Part shown: positions 1 to 23,649 of the stretch, in pieces
How positions within the stretch are numbered: position 1 is the stretch's first letter
How the letters are laid out: each line of letters starts with the position of its first letter
Assembly (NCBI GenBank): GCA_963733095.1
Contig: CAVTBV010000016.1
Span: forward strand, 114,985-178,984
Direction of reading: 5' to 3'
DNA: 64,000 nt
From: Candidatus Bathyarchaeota archaeon
GTDB taxonomy: Archaea; Thermoproteota; Bathyarchaeia; Bathyarchaeales; Bathycorpusculaceae
Translations under genes and position numbers: made by a program
Notes under the pieces: generated by a model
The model's database searches: none
Told to the model about the DNA's origin: nothing
The model's input: the letters and a program-made list of their open reading frames with translations, nothing else

Positions 1-936
1 AATTATAGAGTTTGTGTTCATCGACATACCCAATAACATGGAGTATTCTTTTACTTTCTCAATCATTTCGTTAATGACTACTGGGTTAGCGGATATGCCG
101 TTTCCAATCACCGTTATCTCTGCAACAGGGGTTTGGTGAGAGATTTCTGCATCTAACTCTGTAGCTAAGCCTCCTTTGATTAAGGTGCCTTCGCTACTTA
201 AGTCGCAATGTGCATTGCTGATTACTTTAACATCGATGTCTTTGGGTTTGTACTTGAGCGCTTTGCTATGGATGAATTTGGCGCCTGAATCTGCCAAGCC
301 AACTAGGGTTGTAACGTTGATTTCTGGAAGCAGTTTGGGGGACGAGATGATTTTGGGGTCACTTGACATTATGCCATCTGCATCAGTCACCAAGACAACT
401 TGGTCTGCATTAATACCCTGTGCCAATATAAACGCGGTTGTGTCACTTCCGCCTCTGCCCAAAGTGGTGATTTTGCCGTTTTTAGTTTTTCCGACAAACC
501 CTGCAATGACAGGAATGATTCCTGATTCGACAAACGGAAGGATACATTCTTTGATGTTTTTCTCGCATTCCCGAACGATTGGATTGGCGTTTTGGAATGA
601 GTCATCGGTGATTATTGGCCATTTGTTATCCATGGGGTCAAAGTAGCATGCGTCTACACCATTGCTCTTCAGTGCGGCGGCGAATATTCGTACGCTTGTA
701 CGTTCGCCCATCGATAGGATATCATCTAATTCATGTTTTTGCAGTTTCCCATTTGAAGTATTCTTAGCCGTGGTCATCAGGACATCGGTTGTTTTGCCCA
801 TAGCGGAAACTACTACAGCGATTTTGGTGCCTTTTTTGGCTTCGTTTACGACGGCGACGACGGCTTTGAGGAGCCTTTCATGGTCGGCAAGGCTAGAGCC
901 ACCGAATTTTACAACTATCTTTTTGTTACTCTGCAT
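1..936 (-). CDS. lysC: Aspartate kinase paralog 1 (3' end runs off the window)
   Basis: Manual translation from ATG 936 gives MQSNKKIVVKFGGSSL...VVVSAMGKTTD...LSMGERTS...TTLGRGGSDTTA...VTDADGIMSSDP. GGGGG SD lies 7 nt upstream. Absent from the ORF track because it has no stop in the window. Confidence 0.9.
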   Translation of the reverse strand, partial: MQSNKKIVVKFGGSSLADHERLLKAVVAVVNEAKKGTKIAVVVSAMGKTTDVLMTTAKNTSNGKLQKHELDDILSMGERTSVRIFAAALKSNGVDACYFDPMDNKWPIITDDSFQNANPIVRECEKNIKECILPFVESGIIPVIAGFVGKTKNGKITTLGRGGSDTTAFILAQGINADQVVLVTDADGIMSSDPKIISSPKLLPEINVTTLVGLADSGAKFIHSKALKYKPKDIDVKVISNAHCDLSSEGTLIKGGLATELDAEISHQTPVAEITVIGNGISANPVVINEMIEKVKEYSMLLGMSMNTNSII

Positions 937-955
937 GTTGGTGCCCCCGTGTTTC

Positions 956-1130
956 GCCCAGAACCGCTACCAAAAAATTTTTCAGCTCTGGGCCTAATGA
1001 AAATGGTAATAATAAAAGTAGTAGTCGAAGCTGGGAAACTGTAACGCAATGAGTCCATTTTTGTTTTCAGCATTAGACATTGCTTCGAACCTGTCCAAAC
1101 AGTCATCTGCCAAAAAATATAAGCGTTTCG
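956..1130 (-). promoter_or_regulatory. Promoter plus structured 5' leader (candidate leader-peptide attenuator) of aspartate kinase
   Basis: BRE/TATA-like CGAAACGC-TTATATTT at ~1130-1115. uORFs at 1080-994 (Tyr/Phe-rich) and 1073/1058-915 (Thr/Ile-rich). 11-bp hairpin at 993-956. Confidence 0.5.
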
Positions 1131-1555
1131 GAATAAGACTAACCAAAAGTGAGGCATCTGCAGAAAGTCGTTTTGTAATTCTAATCTTGAAAGATGCGAC
1201 AGTTAGCGGCCCATTCAAACCCTCATATTTCACAATGAAATGCTACCAAAATCCAAGTGTACACATTATAGTTCGGTTGTAACTTTGAAGAGTTAGTCCT
1301 GCCAGATGCTCTGGTTCCAATCGCCATACTCCAAATCAATTATGTGTCATTTTAGCCGATTAACTGACCTTGACTTTTTTGTTCCTTTACAGTTTGGAGG
1401 CCATGATTTTGCCAGAACAAACCTGCTGCAATTTCTATTATGATCCTGACGCAGGGCTTCGCCATTTTATTATTCGTTGTTAATTTAGGTCTTTTTAAAC
1501 GAAACACGGAAATTTGAGTTGCAGTTAGAGAACGCAAATCCGAAGTCGAAGCAAA

Positions 1556-2461
1556 TCATTTTCTGTAGAGCAAATAAACTCCAAAAACCATAGCTATCCC
1601 AGCAAAAATCTGCACGAAAGTGAACCCTTCTCTGAGAATAACGAAAGCGAAAACTGCTCCGAAAAGAGACGCTGTTGAAAAGATAATGCCAGTCCGCATA
1701 GAGCCAATTTCTTTAAGACCTACCATAAAAAACAGAATTGAGAACCCTATGCTAAATGCCCCTACAGTGATTAGGTAAGGGAAAGCTGAAAGCGGGACGT
1801 AGAAGTCTAATTTTAATGCATACACAACAAGCAGAAGGCTTACTCCACCTATTAGACATTTTAGGGCAGCTACAAGAAGCAGGTCTTCCTTTACGCATAG
1901 AAACTTGCTCAGGTTGTTGTCTATCCCCCAAAACAAACATCCGGTCAATATTAGGAGGTTACCAATAACCCATGTTTCTAATGACAACTGGTAAAATTGT
2001 CCATTGGTTGACAGAAATACGGCACCAATGACCAGCAGTGTAATTGCACCTATTTCTTTTTTATTGCACCGTTCCCTTAGAAATGAAATAGCTATTAAAA
2101 CTGTAAAGAGAGCTTCGGCGTTTTGAAGCAAAGATGCATTTAATGCAGTGGTCTGGTTAAGACCGTTAAGAAACAATACTGGAGCAATAATAGAGCCACA
2201 GAGCACCACCAAACCAAGTGTAGCTACGTCTTTTTTGCAGAATTTGGGCTCGGTCTTTGTTGGAGTTTTCAGTAGCCGCATGACATGTTTGCGAATTGGA
2301 GAGAAGCGAACTGCCGATAAAACGATTCCTGCAAAAAGATAGATTAGCCCGGCCACTACGGTTGGATTAACATTGGCTAACGCAATCTTGTTGAGTGTGG
2401 TTCCAACACCGAAAAGGAGGGCAGACCCAACAGCACTTACATAACCCCAGTGATGCGTCAT
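1556..2461 (-). CDS. EamA/DMT family transporter
   Basis: ~10 TM helices in two EamA repeats (NASLLQNAEALFT...FLRER; ASLFGAVFAFVILREG). Confidence 0.85.
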   Translation of the reverse strand: MTHHWGYVSAVGSALLFGVGTTLNKIALANVNPTVVAGLIYLFAGIVLSAVRFSPIRKHVMRLLKTPTKTEPKFCKKDVATLGLVVLCGSIIAPVLFLNGLNQTTALNASLLQNAEALFTVLIAISFLRERCNKKEIGAITLLVIGAVFLSTNGQFYQLSLETWVIGNLLILTGCLFWGIDNNLSKFLCVKEDLLLVAALKCLIGGVSLLLVVYALKLDFYVPLSAFPYLITVGAFSIGFSILFFMVGLKEIGSMRTGIIFSTASLFGAVFAFVILREGFTFVQIFAGIAMVFGVYLLYRK

Positions 2462-2466
2462 AACAA

Positions 2467-3357
2467 CTACTGCGTATCGGCGGTTTTTCGCTTTTCTCCG
2501 TCAGGAATTGAGTTATTTCTTGAATTTAGAAGTTCCAGAATTTCTTTTCTGGCTTCTCCTATAGTGAGAGGAAGTAGTTCGCCTATTGGCAGATTGTTTT
2601 CTTTTTTTAGCACTTCAAAAAGATGCGCTATTCGTGGTGAACGCAAGTTTACCTTTCTTATTAGCTCAGTATTTGAAAAGCTTGTTTTGGGGGTACCTTC
2701 GGAAACTATTTTTCCTTTGTCTAAGATGTAGATTTTATTTGCAAACAGAGGAACCATATCTACGTCGTGTGTAGCTAATAATAATGTAATTCCGTTTTCT
2801 TTGTTGAGTCGAAGGAGTAAATGCAAGATGTCGCTTGTAGCGATGGGGTCAAGGCTTGAGGTGGGCTCGTCCATTATGATAACTTCAGGCTGCATAGCAA
2901 GAACGCCTGCTAGCGCAACCCGCTTCTTCTGGCCACCACTGAGAAAATGAGGTGGTTTATCCGCGAATTCGGTCATACCAACAGTTATTAGTGCGTCATC
3001 GACGAGTTGCTTGACATGCTCAGGAGTATACCCTAGATTTAAAGGTCCAAAAGCTACATCTTGTTTTACTGAAGAAGCAAAAAGCTGATCATTCGGATCT
3101 TGAAAGACGAAGCCAACTCTCTTTCGCAGATTGAGAAGAGATTTAGCATCGTATGCCAAAGGTTTGTCTTCAAAGTATATGTTGCCGGAAGTGGGTTTTA
3201 GGATACCGTTTAAATGGTTAAGTAGAGTGGTTTTTCCAGAACCATTTGTGCCTAAGAAAGCAACTCGTTCGCCTCGAGTAAAGTTCAAAGAAACCTCATT
3301 TAGCGCCAATGTTCCGTCCGAGTATCGATGAGATAATTTGTCTAATCTAAAAATCAT
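2467..3357 (-). CDS. cbiO: ECF Co/Ni transporter ATPase
   Basis: GTNGSGKT Walker A, FQDPNDQLF, LSGGQKKRVA, DEPT. Confidence 0.92.
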   Translation of the reverse strand: MIFRLDKLSHRYSDGTLALNEVSLNFTRGERVAFLGTNGSGKTTLLNHLNGILKPTSGNIYFEDKPLAYDAKSLLNLRKRVGFVFQDPNDQLFASSVKQDVAFGPLNLGYTPEHVKQLVDDALITVGMTEFADKPPHFLSGGQKKRVALAGVLAMQPEVIIMDEPTSSLDPIATSDILHLLLRLNKENGITLLLATHDVDMVPLFANKIYILDKGKIVSEGTPKTSFSNTELIRKVNLRSPRIAHLFEVLKKENNLPIGELLPLTIGEARKEILELLNSRNNSIPDGEKRKTADTQ

Positions 3358-19935: not shown

Positions 19936-21186
19936 ATGGTTCATCAAGAATGCATAAACTGCAAAACAACCTACGGTATAGATGAGATTGTTTACTTCTG
20001 CAAAAAATGTGGAGATATTCTGGAGATAAAGTTTGACTTCAAAGAGTTATCGGAGACTCTCAAAGAAAGCGGTTGGCTAAGCAAGCCCCTTTCGGTTTGG
20101 CGTTACCGCGACTTTATGCCAATCCATGAAGCCACAAAAATAGTCACCTTAAACGAAGGCGGTACAGGATTGCACCGTTCGGAACGGTTAGGTTCAGAGT
20201 TAGGACTCAAAAACCTCTACGTCAAAAACGAGGGTGAAAACCCCACCGGCAGCTTCAAAGACAGAGGCATGACTGTTGGCGTAACAAAAGCAGTGGAACT
20301 CGGTGCAAGACACGTTATCTGTGCATCAACAGGTAATACATCTGCAAGCCTGGCCGCCTACGCCGCACGTGCAGGAATAAAATGCACCGTCCTCATTCCT
20401 TCAGGCAAAATTGCTTACGGCAAACTCTCCCAAGCCATGATTCACGGTGCTAAAGTCCTCCAAGTCAAAGGAAACTTTGATGAAGCTTTAGAGTTCGTGC
20501 TAAAGCTTGCCGAGAAACATAAGAGCATTTACCTGTTGAACTCAATTAATCCGTTCCGTATTGAAGGACAAAAGTCTCTCGGCTTCGAAATCTGCGAGCA
20601 ACTAAACAACGATGCGCCAGATCGCATAATAGTCCCAGTTGGCAACGCAGGAAACATAAGTGCCATCTGGAAAGGTCTAAGCGAATTCTACCGGCTTGGC
20701 TATATAAAAAATTTGCCCAAAATGACGGGAATACAAGCCGCAGGTTCTTCACCGATTGCCCAGATGATTAAAACTAACAGCGACAAAATCATCCCTGTAG
20801 AGCATCCTGAAACGGTGGCAACAGCGATCCGTATTGGTGCGCCTGTAAGCTGGAAAAAAGCCGTTAACGCCATCCACGAATCACACGGAACCGCCGAAAC
20901 CGTTACAGACGACGAAATCTTGGATGCTCAAAAAATCCTTGCCCGAATCGAAGGAATATTTGTTGAGCCCGCAAGTGCTTCATCCATCGCTGGCTTAAAG
21001 AAACTGGTCCAAAATGGCGTGATTAGCAAGGATGAGCGGGTTGTCTGTGTTACTACGGGTCATGGGCTCAAAGACCCCGATACTGCAGTTAAGATGAGTG
21101 AGAAGCCAGTTGAGGTTGACGCAAATATTTCAGCCATTGAAGATGCATTGGGCTTATCGAAACAAAAAGTGATTCTTGCACGGTGA
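19936..21186 (+). CDS. thrC: Threonine synthase
   Basis: NPTGSFKDRG PLP lysine, ASTGNTSAS, PVGNAGN, TGHGLKDP. Confidence 0.96.
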   Translation: MVHQECINCKTTYGIDEIVYFCKKCGDILEIKFDFKELSETLKESGWLSKPLSVWRYRDFMPIHEATKIVTLNEGGTGLHRSERLGSELGLKNLYVKNEGENPTGSFKDRGMTVGVTKAVELGARHVICASTGNTSASLAAYAARAGIKCTVLIPSGKIAYGKLSQAMIHGAKVLQVKGNFDEALEFVLKLAEKHKSIYLLNSINPFRIEGQKSLGFEICEQLNNDAPDRIIVPVGNAGNISAIWKGLSEFYRLGYIKNLPKMTGIQAAGSSPIAQMIKTNSDKIIPVEHPETVATAIRIGAPVSWKKAVNAIHESHGTAETVTDDEILDAQKILARIEGIFVEPASASSIAGLKKLVQNGVISKDERVVCVTTGHGLKDPDTAVKMSEKPVEVDANISAIEDALGLSKQKVILAR

Positions 21187-21192
21187 TATGAA

Positions 21193-22221
21193 ATGAGGAT
21201 TATTTTAGTTGGCTACGGCGTAGTCGGAAAAGGCGTAACCACCATTCTGACCCACCGATCCGTAGAAAAAGTCAAGGATTACGGGTTTAACCCAAAGATT
21301 GTTGCAATCGCAGACATAGACGGCGCAGTAATTAACCCTCGAGGTTTAAGCCCTGAGAAACTGGAAGCAATTAAACAGCGCGGGTATCCAATTTCTTCAG
21401 ACCCCGATTTTGGGCAAAAAGGAATCTCTGCGTTAGACGTAATTGAGTCGGTTGAAGCAGAAGTGGTCGTTGAAGTCACCCCCGTCAACATCAAGAACGG
21501 TGAACCAGCCCTATCACACATAACTAAAGCGTTCAAAACGGGCAAACATGTCGTAACAACCAACAAGGGACCATTAGCCCTAGCCATGCCAGCCCTCACA
21601 GAACTCGCTGAGTACAACAATGTTTACTTGCGGTTCAGCGGCACAGTCGGTGGCGGAACGCCCATGCTTGAATTCGCCAAAAGATGCCTCGCAGGAGATA
21701 AAATTCTTGCGATACGCGGCATACTAAACGGCACAACTAACTATATCCTAACGGAGATGACTCAAAACCGAGTGAATTTCCAAGATGCCCTCGCAAACGC
21801 GCAGAAGCTCGGTTACGCCGAGAGGGAACCATCTATGGATATTGATGGGTTTGATACTGCCTGCAAAGTTGTCATTTTGTCAAACTGGATAATGAACAAA
21901 AAAATAACCCTAAAAGATGTAGATCGAACAGGAATCCGCGACGTGGCTTTGCAAGCTCTTGATGAAGCTTCAAAGAGAGGCAACACAATCAAACTCATCG
22001 GCGCGATCGACGACGATAAAGTATCAGTGAAGCCGACGGAAATCCCCAAAAACAACCCTCTATGTGTCAGCGGAGTACTAAACGCCATAACTTTCTCAAC
22101 CGAATATGCGGGAGAACAAACACTTATCGGCAGAGGTGCAGGCGGCGTTGAGACTGCCAGTGCAGTTTTAAGGGACCTTTTAGATATAAGACGTAAACTA
22201 GCAACCAAACTACTAAACTAA
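21193..22221 (+). CDS. hom: Homoserine dehydrogenase
   Basis: GYGVVG, HVVTTNKGP, GILNGTTNYIL, GRGAGGVETA. Confidence 0.95.
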   Translation: MRIILVGYGVVGKGVTTILTHRSVEKVKDYGFNPKIVAIADIDGAVINPRGLSPEKLEAIKQRGYPISSDPDFGQKGISALDVIESVEAEVVVEVTPVNIKNGEPALSHITKAFKTGKHVVTTNKGPLALAMPALTELAEYNNVYLRFSGTVGGGTPMLEFAKRCLAGDKILAIRGILNGTTNYILTEMTQNRVNFQDALANAQKLGYAEREPSMDIDGFDTACKVVILSNWIMNKKITLKDVDRTGIRDVALQALDEASKRGNTIKLIGAIDDDKVSVKPTEIPKNNPLCVSGVLNAITFSTEYAGEQTLIGRGAGGVETASAVLRDLLDIRRKLATKLLN

Positions 22222-22236
22222 AAAAGGCTGAATAAA

Positions 22237-23649
22237 ATGAAAAAGATAGTGATGAAGTTCGGAGGAACCAGCGTTGGCACCGGCGAAAACATACGTCATG
22301 TAGCTGACCTTGTTTCACAATACATCAATGACGATTGCAGAGTTGCCGTTGTTGTTTCAGCGTTGGCAGGCGTTACTAACAACTTGATCGAGGTTGCTTG
22401 CCAAGCAAAGAAAAGCGACGAAAAAAACATCGAAACCTTCACAAAAACACTACTCCAAAAGCATCAAGAAGCAATCTCAACCGCCATAAGGAATAAACAA
22501 ATTCAAAAAGAAGTCGCCCAAATCACCGAAAAAACAATTTCTGAACTAGAAAAAGTACTAACAGGCATATGCTACGTCGGTGAACTTACACCAAAATCCA
22601 AAGACTACGTCTCCTCTTTTGGAGAACGCTTATCTGCACCGATCGTTTGGGGCGCCATAAAAGATCACAAACTTGAATCCCAGTGTTTAACAGGTAAAGA
22701 AGCAGGCATCGTTACGGATTCAAACTTTGGCGAAGCCAACCCACTAATGAACTTCACCACCCACCTGATCCGCGAACGAGTCATCCCTCTTCTAGAGAAG
22801 GGGACGATTCCAGTGATCACAGGTTTCATTGCAGCCAACCAAGATGGCGTCGTCACCACTGTTGGACGCGGAGGCTCAGATTACACTGCAACCATCGTTG
22901 GCGTGGCAGTTCAAGCTGATGAAGTTTGGATATGGACAGACGTCGACGGTATAATGACCACGGACCCCAAAATTGTCCCATCCGCCCGAATGCTGCCTCA
23001 GCTTAGTTATCAAGAAGCTGCGGAAATGGCAATTTTCGGCGCAAAAGCCATGCACCCACGCGCACTCGGACCGGTAATAAAAGAAAACATCCCTGTCAGG
23101 ATACGCAGCGTTTTCCACCCAGAAAACCCAGGCACCCTGATAACCAAGGAACCTAACGCCAAAGTAAAAGAAGCAGTCAAAGCAGTTGCCATGATAAAGG
23201 ACGTTGCCATGCTCAACGTTAACGGCGCAGCAATGGTGGGAGCTCCAGGAAGCTACGCCAAAGTATTCGATGTCCTTGGCAAGAACAACATAAACGTCAT
23301 GATGATTTCCACTGCGGTTTCAGAAGCCAACATCTCCATGATAATCAAGCGGGGACTCTTAGGAAGGGCAATCAGCAACCTCGAAATCGCCCTGCTTGAA
23401 CGAGGCGGAGTTGTAAGCGAAATTTCAGCCGAAGACGACGTTGCGGTAATCGCAGTTATGGGCGCCAACATGAAAGGCACACTTGGTGTAGCATCAAGAA
23501 TCTTTAACACAGTCGCCAAGAAAGGAATCAACATCCGCATGATTGCACAAGGCAGCTCTGAGCTAAACATATCGTTTGTCGTCAAAGAGAAGGACGGAGT
23601 AGCCGTCGTCCGAGCGATGCATGAAGAGTTCAAATTAGACAAAAACTAA
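22237..23649 (+). CDS. lysC: Aspartate kinase paralog 2 with two ACT domains
   Basis: MKFGGTSV, GRGGSDYTA, WTDVDGIMTTDP, QGSSELNISF. Confidence 0.95.
   Translation: MKKIVMKFGGTSVGTGENIRHVADLVSQYINDDCRVAVVVSALAGVTNNLIEVACQAKKSDEKNIETFTKTLLQKHQEAISTAIRNKQIQKEVAQITEKTISELEKVLTGICYVGELTPKSKDYVSSFGERLSAPIVWGAIKDHKLESQCLTGKEAGIVTDSNFGEANPLMNFTTHLIRERVIPLLEKGTIPVITGFIAANQDGVVTTVGRGGSDYTATIVGVAVQADEVWIWTDVDGIMTTDPKIVPSARMLPQLSYQEAAEMAIFGAKAMHPRALGPVIKENIPVRIRSVFHPENPGTLITKEPNAKVKEAVKAVAMIKDVAMLNVNGAAMVGAPGSYAKVFDVLGKNNINVMMISTAVSEANISMIIKRGLLGRAISNLEIALLERGGVVSEISAEDDVAVIAVMGANMKGTLGVASRIFNTVAKKGINIRMIAQGSSELNISFVVKEKDGVAVVRAMHEEFKLDKN

Follow-up and report, generated by a model that had tools for sequence, protein, structure and literature searches.

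A conserved Tyr/Phe-rich leader frame upstream of the ask-aro operon of Bathyarchaeia: a candidate amino-acid-sensing leader in archaea

Introduction

Can a ribosome translating a short leader frame report the supply of amino acids to a biosynthetic operon in an archaeon? This question is raised by the DNA upstream of ask, an aspartate kinase gene at the edge of a 64,000-nucleotide stretch from Candidatus Bathyarchaeota archaeon (assembly GCA_963733095.1, contig CAVTBV010000016.1, positions 114,985 to 178,984). We refer to this whole stretch as the window. A sequence-only reading of the window had described a Tyr/Phe-rich frame followed by a hairpin upstream of ask, had likened them to the bacterial pheL and thrL attenuators, and had proposed ribosome-mediated sensing of amino acids. 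On the sequences compared here, the element is real and deeply conserved, and its architecture is unlike that of bacterial leader peptides. Leaving its output aside, we consider it probable that the element acts in cis as a Tyr/Phe-sensing leader of ask-aro. The best reading is that a translating ribosome does the sensing, because the Tyr/Phe frame is conserved, aromatic biosynthesis genes lie downstream and the hairpin keeps its pairing; the bacterial-type layout was not borne out.

Ribosome-mediated attenuation is a consequence of coupled transcription and translation and, to our knowledge, has been documented only in bacteria. A full-text search of a subset of PubMed Central, without supplements, returned no paper describing leader-peptide attenuation in archaea or the regulation of ask-aro in Bathyarchaeia.

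Results

Layout of the leader

The features of the leader, all on the minus strand and numbered by window position, are as follows. ORF denotes open reading frame, BRE the B recognition element and SD a Shine-Dalgarno sequence; P1 and P2 are the two predicted helices.

1131-1112, minus strand: predicted archaeal promoter, a BRE-like CCGAAACGC and TATA box TTATATTTTTT, read from the sequence
1091-1082, minus strand: 5' arm of P1, GGUUCGAAGC, at or near the mRNA 5' end and 1 nt 5' of the leader AUG, predicted by RNAalifold
1080-994, minus strand: leader ORF, MSNAENKNGLIALQFPSFDYYFYYYHFH and stop, 28 codons plus stop (ATG 1080-1078, TAG 996-994)
1032-1024, minus strand: 3' arm of P1, AGCUUCGAC, codons Ser17-Phe18-Asp19, abutting the first Tyr codon
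1029-1000, minus strand: candidate regulatory codon run F18, Y20, Y21, F22, Y23, Y24, Y25, F27
993-956, minus strand: hairpin P2, with 5' arm GCCCAGAGCTG (993-983), loop AAAAATTTTTTGGTAG (982-967) and 3' arm CGGTTCTGGGC (966-956)
982-972, minus strand: A5 then U6 tract in the P2 loop (T6 at 977-972), candidate archaeal pause/termination signal
948-944, minus strand: SD-like GGGGG (GGGUG in most relatives), 7 nt 3' of P2
936..1, minus strand: ask, aspartate kinase, 411 aa (ATG 936-934), extending past the window edge; Pfam AA_kinase, NCBIfam NF005159 at 382.4 bits against a cut-off of 379

The sequence-only reading was accurate in every detail of the window that can be checked. The promoter that it placed at about 1130-1115 was found, and the AUG at 1080 opens a frame with five Tyr and four Phe in its last 14 residues, eight of them among the last 11. 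The hairpin also has the described form: 11 bp, two of them G-U, beginning at the base after the TAG, with a U6 run in the loop and the GGGGG 3' of it. The loop reads A5-U6-GGUAG and the hairpin is followed by GAAACAC. From the position of the TATA box, we infer that transcription starts near 1095-1090. The promoter motif CGAAAyGCTTATATTTT is invariant across 23 same-genus leaders (alignment A1). The leader ORF has no Pfam match.

ask heads an aromatic operon

Whether aro genes or thr/ilv genes follow ask had been set beforehand as a test, and aro genes were found, with 2-amino-3,7-dideoxy-D-threo-hept-6-ulosonate (ADH) synthase first. The ten genes on this strand are ask, ADH synthase, 3-dehydroquinate (DHQ) synthase II, aroD, aroE, an archaeal shikimate kinase, aroA (5-enolpyruvylshikimate-3-phosphate synthase), aroC (chorismate synthase), an aminotransferase and tyrA (prephenate dehydrogenase); the nine after ask lie beyond the window edge and were read on the same contig. 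ADH synthase matched TIGR01949 with 342.6 bits (cut-off 299.45), and DHQ synthase II matched its models with E = 4e-102, yet under their equivalog cut-offs. Both signature enzymes of the aspartate-semialdehyde/6-deoxy-5-ketofructose-1-phosphate (ASA/DKFP) route to aromatic amino acids (see PMC4162585) are present beside aroD, aroE, archaeal aroK, aroA and aroC. Because same-strand aro genes follow ask, with ADH synthase leading them, the gene order identifies ask as the first gene of an operon for this route. Prephenate dehydratase is nearby, as the last gene of a converging ilvB-ilvN-leuCDBA operon. At the tail of the aro operon, just 3' of prephenate dehydrogenase, is a 122-aa ORF without an NCBIfam match (contig 105411-105779, minus strand).

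The genome contains two further ask paralogues, one of them thr-linked and the other on contig C3. The claim that a second ask already serves the thr genes holds: thrC, hom (homoserine dehydrogenase) and a 470-aa ask lie in that order at 19936-23649 on the plus strand. Because this second ask clusters with thrC-hom, the genome, judged by its gene neighbourhoods, keeps pathway-specific aspartate kinases, and the one dedicated to the ASA/DKFP aromatic route heads its operon. A dedicated ask in this position suggests that aspartate semialdehyde bound for aromatic synthesis has its supply regulated independently of the Thr/Lys/Met branch.

The Tyr/Phe frame is conserved

A match to ask was present in 31 of 41 related genomes, including 23 of the 24 from the same genus. 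An ATG frame of 24-29 codons with a Tyr/Phe-rich tail precedes ask at all 27 loci where ask is 52-100% identical, and at none of the three paralogue loci (35-39% identical). Among 80 further public Bathyarchaeia loci (ask 60-92% identical), 79 carry the leader frame, and the sole miss has only 77 nt of upstream DNA; 78 carry a hairpin of -12 to -24 kcal/mol after the stop, and one locus is masked by N. Pooling gave 104 loci and, after de-duplication, 89 distinct leaders, with L098 (N), L104 (no upstream DNA) and L110 (truncated) left out.

The Tyr/Phe frame proved to be the conserved one, since all 89 distinct leaders have an intact ATG-to-stop frame of 24-29 codons. Their last ten residues comprise 380 Tyr and 238 Phe out of 890, or 69% Tyr plus Phe. 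In the codons of the Tyr/Phe run, first and second positions are 95-100% conserved, and TAC and TAT occur 64:20 at the first Tyr. The Ser-Phe-Asp codons of the P1 3' arm are kept at the nucleotide level, third positions too, in alignment A1 (23 sequences) and alignment A3 (89 sequences).

The element extends well beyond the genus. An ask with 60% identity occurs in Ca. Bathyarchaeum tardum, whose strain M17C-01 carries the element (loci L029/L114), and 100 of 301 genomes sampled across the class have an ask orthologue at E <= 1e-85. For a distant survey, 40 loci were hand-picked for family spread, 39 of them with upstream DNA; a frame was called aromatic-rich when at least 5 of 10 residues were aromatic, and a hairpin after the stop was counted at -15 kcal/mol or better. 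Both features were present at 21 of the 39 loci, with hairpin sequences unrelated to that of the window. These loci span ten coded families (f32, f14, f30, f19, f27, f11, f34, f37, f16 and four further genera of f1). In families f26, f35, f15 and f17, no aromatic-rich leader of this kind precedes ask (17 of the 39 distant loci; a further one has a weak hairpin). Judged from these surveys, about a dozen Bathyarchaeia families have kept the leader element.

The f26 and f35 loci (L119-L130) have another conserved small frame before the aro-linked ask, MG[GD]xL[FY]GDGVY... or MGGHLYWH..., which is not aromatic-rich. In these two families, many ask reading frames remain open for 40-90 codons upstream of the alignment start.

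Two helices flank the leader start and the stop codon

RNAalifold predicts two helices. P2 is the hairpin after the stop codon; the gap between stop and hairpin is 0 nt in 67 of the 89 leaders. Folded alone, the P2 of the window has -19.1 kcal/mol (z = -3.23), and none of 200 shuffles was as stable. P1, which the sequence-only reading did not include, pairs GGUUCGARGC(U) at 1091-1082 with AGCUUCGA (1032-1025), in the Ser-Phe-Asp codons that immediately precede the first Tyr codon. The 5' arm of P1 is nearly invariant in A1 and A3.

Pairing is maintained across A3. Taken together, P1 and P2 are paired in 88.3% of 1740 cells, a figure that drops to 26-50% once the 3' partners are shifted by 1-3 columns. 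Both-side changes occur in 11 of 20 pairs, and none of 500 shuffles reached any of five measures, although the aligned sequences are related, not independent, and such controls overstate the support for the helices. P1 alone is paired in 88.3% of cells, with A-U changed to G-U in 21 sequences and U-A to U-G in 17. P2 alone is paired in 88.4% of cells with both-side changes at eight of 11 pairs; like P1, the hairpin is kept through wobble and compensatory changes. The commonest changes affect one side of a pair and can be absorbed by wobble in the sense strand alone: A-U became G-U in 21 and 19 sequences, and C-G became U-G in 9. Therefore, RNA pairing is favoured and a DNA palindrome is disfavoured. 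On sequence grounds, the unrelated hairpins at the same spot in other families are more independent evidence for P2. For P1 in the distant families, single-sequence folds often pair the leader start region with a segment at the aromatic run.

At the f14 loci L131 and L132, the hairpin after the stop is built from AAGCUUCGA...UUCGAAGCUU, the same words as P1 of the window's lineage, and is followed by U5 and GGAGG.

A U-tract lies at a preferred position after the stop codon

P2 loops contain a run of at least four T in 74 of the 89 leaders and at least five in 52. The longest run averages 4.72, compared with 2.36 in shuffled loops, and in 60 of the 74 it ends 21-23 nt after the leader stop. 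This positional conservation, like P1, was absent from the sequence-only reading. The U-tract is thus, by these counts, a frequent but not universal feature of the leader design.

In the genome, the density of T5+ runs is 7.9 per kb over the 60 nt that follow stop codons, 2.5 per kb over the 60 nt that precede ATGs and 1.3 per kb inside ORFs. Such an enrichment after stop codons would be expected if transcripts end at oligo-U. An orthologue of the termination factor aCPSF1/FttA is encoded in the genome (TIGR03675, 907 bits against a cut-off of 580). PMC8716108 describes binding of aCPSF1 to terminator U-tracts, and PMC11616081 contains the proposal that FttA polices transcription-translation coupling and acts when translation lags transcription. 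At the sequence level, both parts of an archaeal oligo-U/aCPSF1 signal are present, namely a U-tract of at least four and an encoded termination factor. The placement of the U-tract suggests an archaeal-style termination output.

Other pairings and searches

The sequence-only reading had also suggested that an upstream segment might pair with the 3' side of the hairpin. This pairing, GTTTCCCAG (1038-1030) with CTGGGCGAAAC (961-951), is possible in the window at -8.0 kcal/mol, and it is private to this genome. Over 82 leaders, the mean duplex energy of this pairing (also written GUUUCCCAG:CUGGGCGAAAC) was -4.57 kcal/mol, compared with -4.56 for shuffles, and it was rejected.

Among the leaders, the 5' region is not generally complementary to the P2 5' arm (mean z = -0.69), and a control pairing with the 3' arm was equally good. 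Strong complementarity is confined to a Bathyarchaeum-like group (for example -15.1 kcal/mol in L109). In L029, L109, L112 and L113 of this group, a 5' untranslated segment (..AACUGGGUCU) mimics the P2 3' arm and can pair with the P2 5' arm. This may be a true alternative helix in that group only.

A search of window positions 1-3000 against Rfam with cmscan (E up to 10) gave five weak matches, none of them a leader family and none at gathering score. The 430-nt spacer (1124-1555) between the ask promoter and an EamA-family transporter gene (1556-2461, minus strand) had only weak Rfam matches, far under gathering scores. Matches from a bacterial-type promoter scan were sigma-70 sites, which were set aside as irrelevant in an archaeal host. 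Among the sequencing runs listed for this DNA, six were DNA runs, one of them covering most of the window, and none was an RNA run.

Discussion

A model for the leader

We propose a model in which the supply of charged Tyr- and Phe-tRNA would be read through the progress of a ribosome on the 28-codon leader frame. Given a footprint of ordinary size, a ribosome held up at codons 20-24, early in the Tyr/Phe run, would cover the P1 3' arm and leave P2 free to form. A ribosome that had reached the stop codon would release the P1 3' arm, so that P1 could close over the leader start, and would cover the G+C-rich GCCC base of P2. The leader would thus have two mirror states, one with P1 open and P2 closed, and the other with P1 closed and P2 open. 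With P1 closed over the leader start, only the first ribosome on a transcript could act as the sensor, as would suit a decision taken during transcription.

The output is put forward more tentatively, and we would not be surprised if it took another form. We suggest that it may be co-transcriptional. When Tyr and Phe are plentiful, the ribosome at the stop codon would block P2, and the U-tract, 17-22 nt past the stop, would lie bare between ribosome and polymerase. Transcription would then end at the bare U-tract, either intrinsically or via aCPSF1/FttA. During starvation, P2 would form once its 3' arm emerges, and the polymerase would continue into ask.

A wider form of this model seems possible but doubtful. 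In it, the leader would represent an archaeal type of leader-peptide attenuation, constructed differently from the bacterial type, in which the first ribosome toggles the independent helices P1 and P2, and P2 gates a U-tract for oligo-U/aCPSF1 termination. This design would serve several operons, here aro and probably ilv-leu.

Several results weigh against a ribosome-sensing leader or against the output proposed for it. RNAalifold with each arm masked in turn returned P1 and P2 only, with no conserved alternative or antiterminator helix. A scan for bacterial-type terminators found no hairpin-plus-U site in positions 800-1700. The SD (948-944) and the ask AUG (936) are outside P2; in partition-function folding with ribosome masks, the mean unpaired probability of the SD over 89 leaders changed little, being 0.40, 0.41, 0.53 and 0.48 across the simulated ribosome positions, where 0.40 is the free leader. 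Folding supported the hairpin alone, whereas the whole 171-nt leader is no more stable than shuffles (z = +0.57, with 142 of 200 shuffles matching or exceeding its stability). To this must be added the relatedness of the aligned sequences, noted above. In the distant families, a blunt duplex test of P1-like pairing gave weak results (mean z = -0.69; 3 of 21 below -2). Fifteen of the 89 P2 loops have a short U-tract or none, and some other families have U4-6 after the hairpin, not in the loop. Moreover, the simplest termination models give the wrong sign, because a ribosome that pushes the polymerase through the U-tract, or that blocks a terminator hairpin, would turn expression on when Tyr and Phe are plentiful. 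A weak point of our output model is that P2 would have to shield a U-tract lying within its own 16-nt loop. Finally, the aromatic codons continue until only 1-2 codons before the stop, and a ribosome stalled at that point would cover the P2 base as well.

Because there is no conserved antiterminator helix and no SD sequestration, the element is not a classical bacterial four-segment attenuator. The pheL/thrL layout that had been claimed for it did not hold up: there are no mutually exclusive helices, no hairpin with an oligo-U terminator and no SD switch in folding. As judged from sequence and predicted structure, the element lacks two of the features that define classical attenuators, and also the one that defines the cat/erm type, whereas the sensing part, a run of cognate codons in a leader frame, is fully present.

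Alternative explanations

The strongest alternative keeps the same sensor and gives it a translational output, and we regard it as unlikely, though it deserves to be weighed with care. A late-paused ribosome could hold the P2 base open, or terminating ribosomes could be handed over the re-formed hairpin to the ask start, with P1 metering entry into the leader. The position of the SD fits this idea, as it is always near the 3' base of P2, in the same genus and in other families (P2 lies 2-13 nt upstream of the ask SD), and so does the reach of the aromatic codons to 1-2 codons before the stop. The hairpin is universal and the U-tract is not. Simulated late stalls slightly raise accessibility, from 0.40 to 0.53 for the SD and from 0.43 to 0.64 for the AUG. 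However, this shift is small and the SD is outside the hairpin. A starved ribosome should halt at the first hungry codons, 27 nt upstream, and P2 would then be as in untranslated mRNA. Closure of the leader start by P1 would end continued sampling, and a hand-over after termination would give expression in plenty, which is the wrong sign unless P1 gating reverses it.

It is quite improbable that the peptide itself acts, either as a nascent SF[DE]Y.FYY chain that arrests the ribosome together with a free ligand or as a released, functional 3-kDa aromatic peptide. TnaC and the arginine attenuator peptide of fungi are examples of nascent chains that arrest the ribosome in response to a ligand. 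Over the 89 leaders, S-F-[D/E/G]-Y-x-F-Y-Y is a well-preserved motif, and F-[D]-F/Y recurs in other families. However, the SFD codons are conserved at the nucleotide level, including third positions, which P1 pairing explains. Beyond SFD, composition is kept but order is not (YYFYYYHF, YGFYYFGYF, YCFYYYY, YSFYYYF), the N-terminal two thirds varies freely, and the peptide matches no family.

We give very little weight to the idea that the inverted repeat GCCCAGAAC...GTTCTGGGC is a DNA operator at which a dimeric transcription factor blocks elongation, with the small frame incidental. Both 9-nt arms are invariant in the genus, exceeding what pairing needs. Against an operator, the spacing of the arms ranges from about 12 to 21 nt, and the changes A to G opposite U and C to U opposite G leave the sense RNA paired, whereas a DNA palindrome would be disrupted by them. 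With both arms intact, the motif is found at one place in the genome (nine looser matches each have a substitution in each arm), other families have a hairpin of unrelated sequence at that spot, and a frame kept in 89 of 89 leaders would be left unexplained.

Least credible of all is a thrL-like Thr/Ile sensor in the second frame from ATG 1073/1058 (...STTTFIITIFI...): this frame does exist in the window (ORF 915-1157), overlaps the ask start and is free of stops over its last 30 nt throughout the 89 leaders, but an in-frame ATG lies upstream in only 25 of 89. Its Ile/Thr content is an automatic by-product of TAT/TAC/TTT codons, the end products of this operon are aromatic amino acids, and thrC-hom is served by another ask. 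In the +2 frame, 38 of the 89 leaders contain stops.

Comparison with known systems

With a Tyr/Phe-sensing leader as the preferred reading, the closest likeness is to pheL-pheA and pheM-pheST (also trpL, hisL, leuL, thrL and ilvL), in which a short leader frame lies between the promoter and the first biosynthetic gene. The likeness to E. coli pheL, which ends in ...F-P-stop, extends to the use of end-product codons, an aromatic run to two codons before the stop and an RNA hairpin directly after the frame. The ask leader differs in having no conserved terminator/antiterminator alternatives, in having, in the lineage of the window, a U-tract in the loop and no U-run after the hairpin, and in having the extra helix P1, which pairs the leader start region with the codons before the run. 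It also differs in its archaeal host, where the polymerase stops at oligo-U, either aided by aCPSF1 or unaided.

The cat, cmlA and ermC leaders also place a frame beside a hairpin just 5' of the ribosome-binding site of the regulated gene, so that a paused ribosome could hold the hairpin open. In those systems the SD is in the hairpin and a drug induces a stall at a fixed codon, whereas the ask leader has its SD 7 nt outside the hairpin and 8-9 candidate hungry codons over 27 nt. E. coli pyrBI resembles the ask leader in having a single hairpin without an antiterminator, with the outcome set by the closeness of the leader ribosome to a polymerase pausing at U-rich sites. In pyrBI, however, it is the polymerase that acts as the sensor, for UTP, and a closely coupled ribosome switches expression on; for an amino-acid operon this wiring would give the wrong sign.

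The ask leader has parts that can be mutated (start codon, Tyr/Phe codons, P1 and P2 arms, and U-tract). It offers a handle on whether archaeal ribosomes regulate the polymerase ahead of them, and on the interplay of aCPSF1/FttA with translation.

Other candidate leaders in the genome

The region upstream of trpE had no visible Trp-rich frame. A crude genome-wide scan for cognate-codon leaders flagged 124 small ORFs; none of the eight that were inspected lies before an amino-acid gene, and the scan was noisy and missed the ilvB frame described here. Upstream of the ilvB-ilvN-leuCDBA-pheA operon is a conserved frame of 16-18 codons, M(x)MRD[RC]HLNS[WR]DRRV[QLF][IL][LF] and stop, which ends in Val/Leu/Ile codons. 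It lies about 140-156 nt upstream of ilvB, at contig 97797-97953, outside the window (L115/L160). This frame, a candidate branched-chain leader peptide by its codon content, was found in 18 of 24 same-genus loci.

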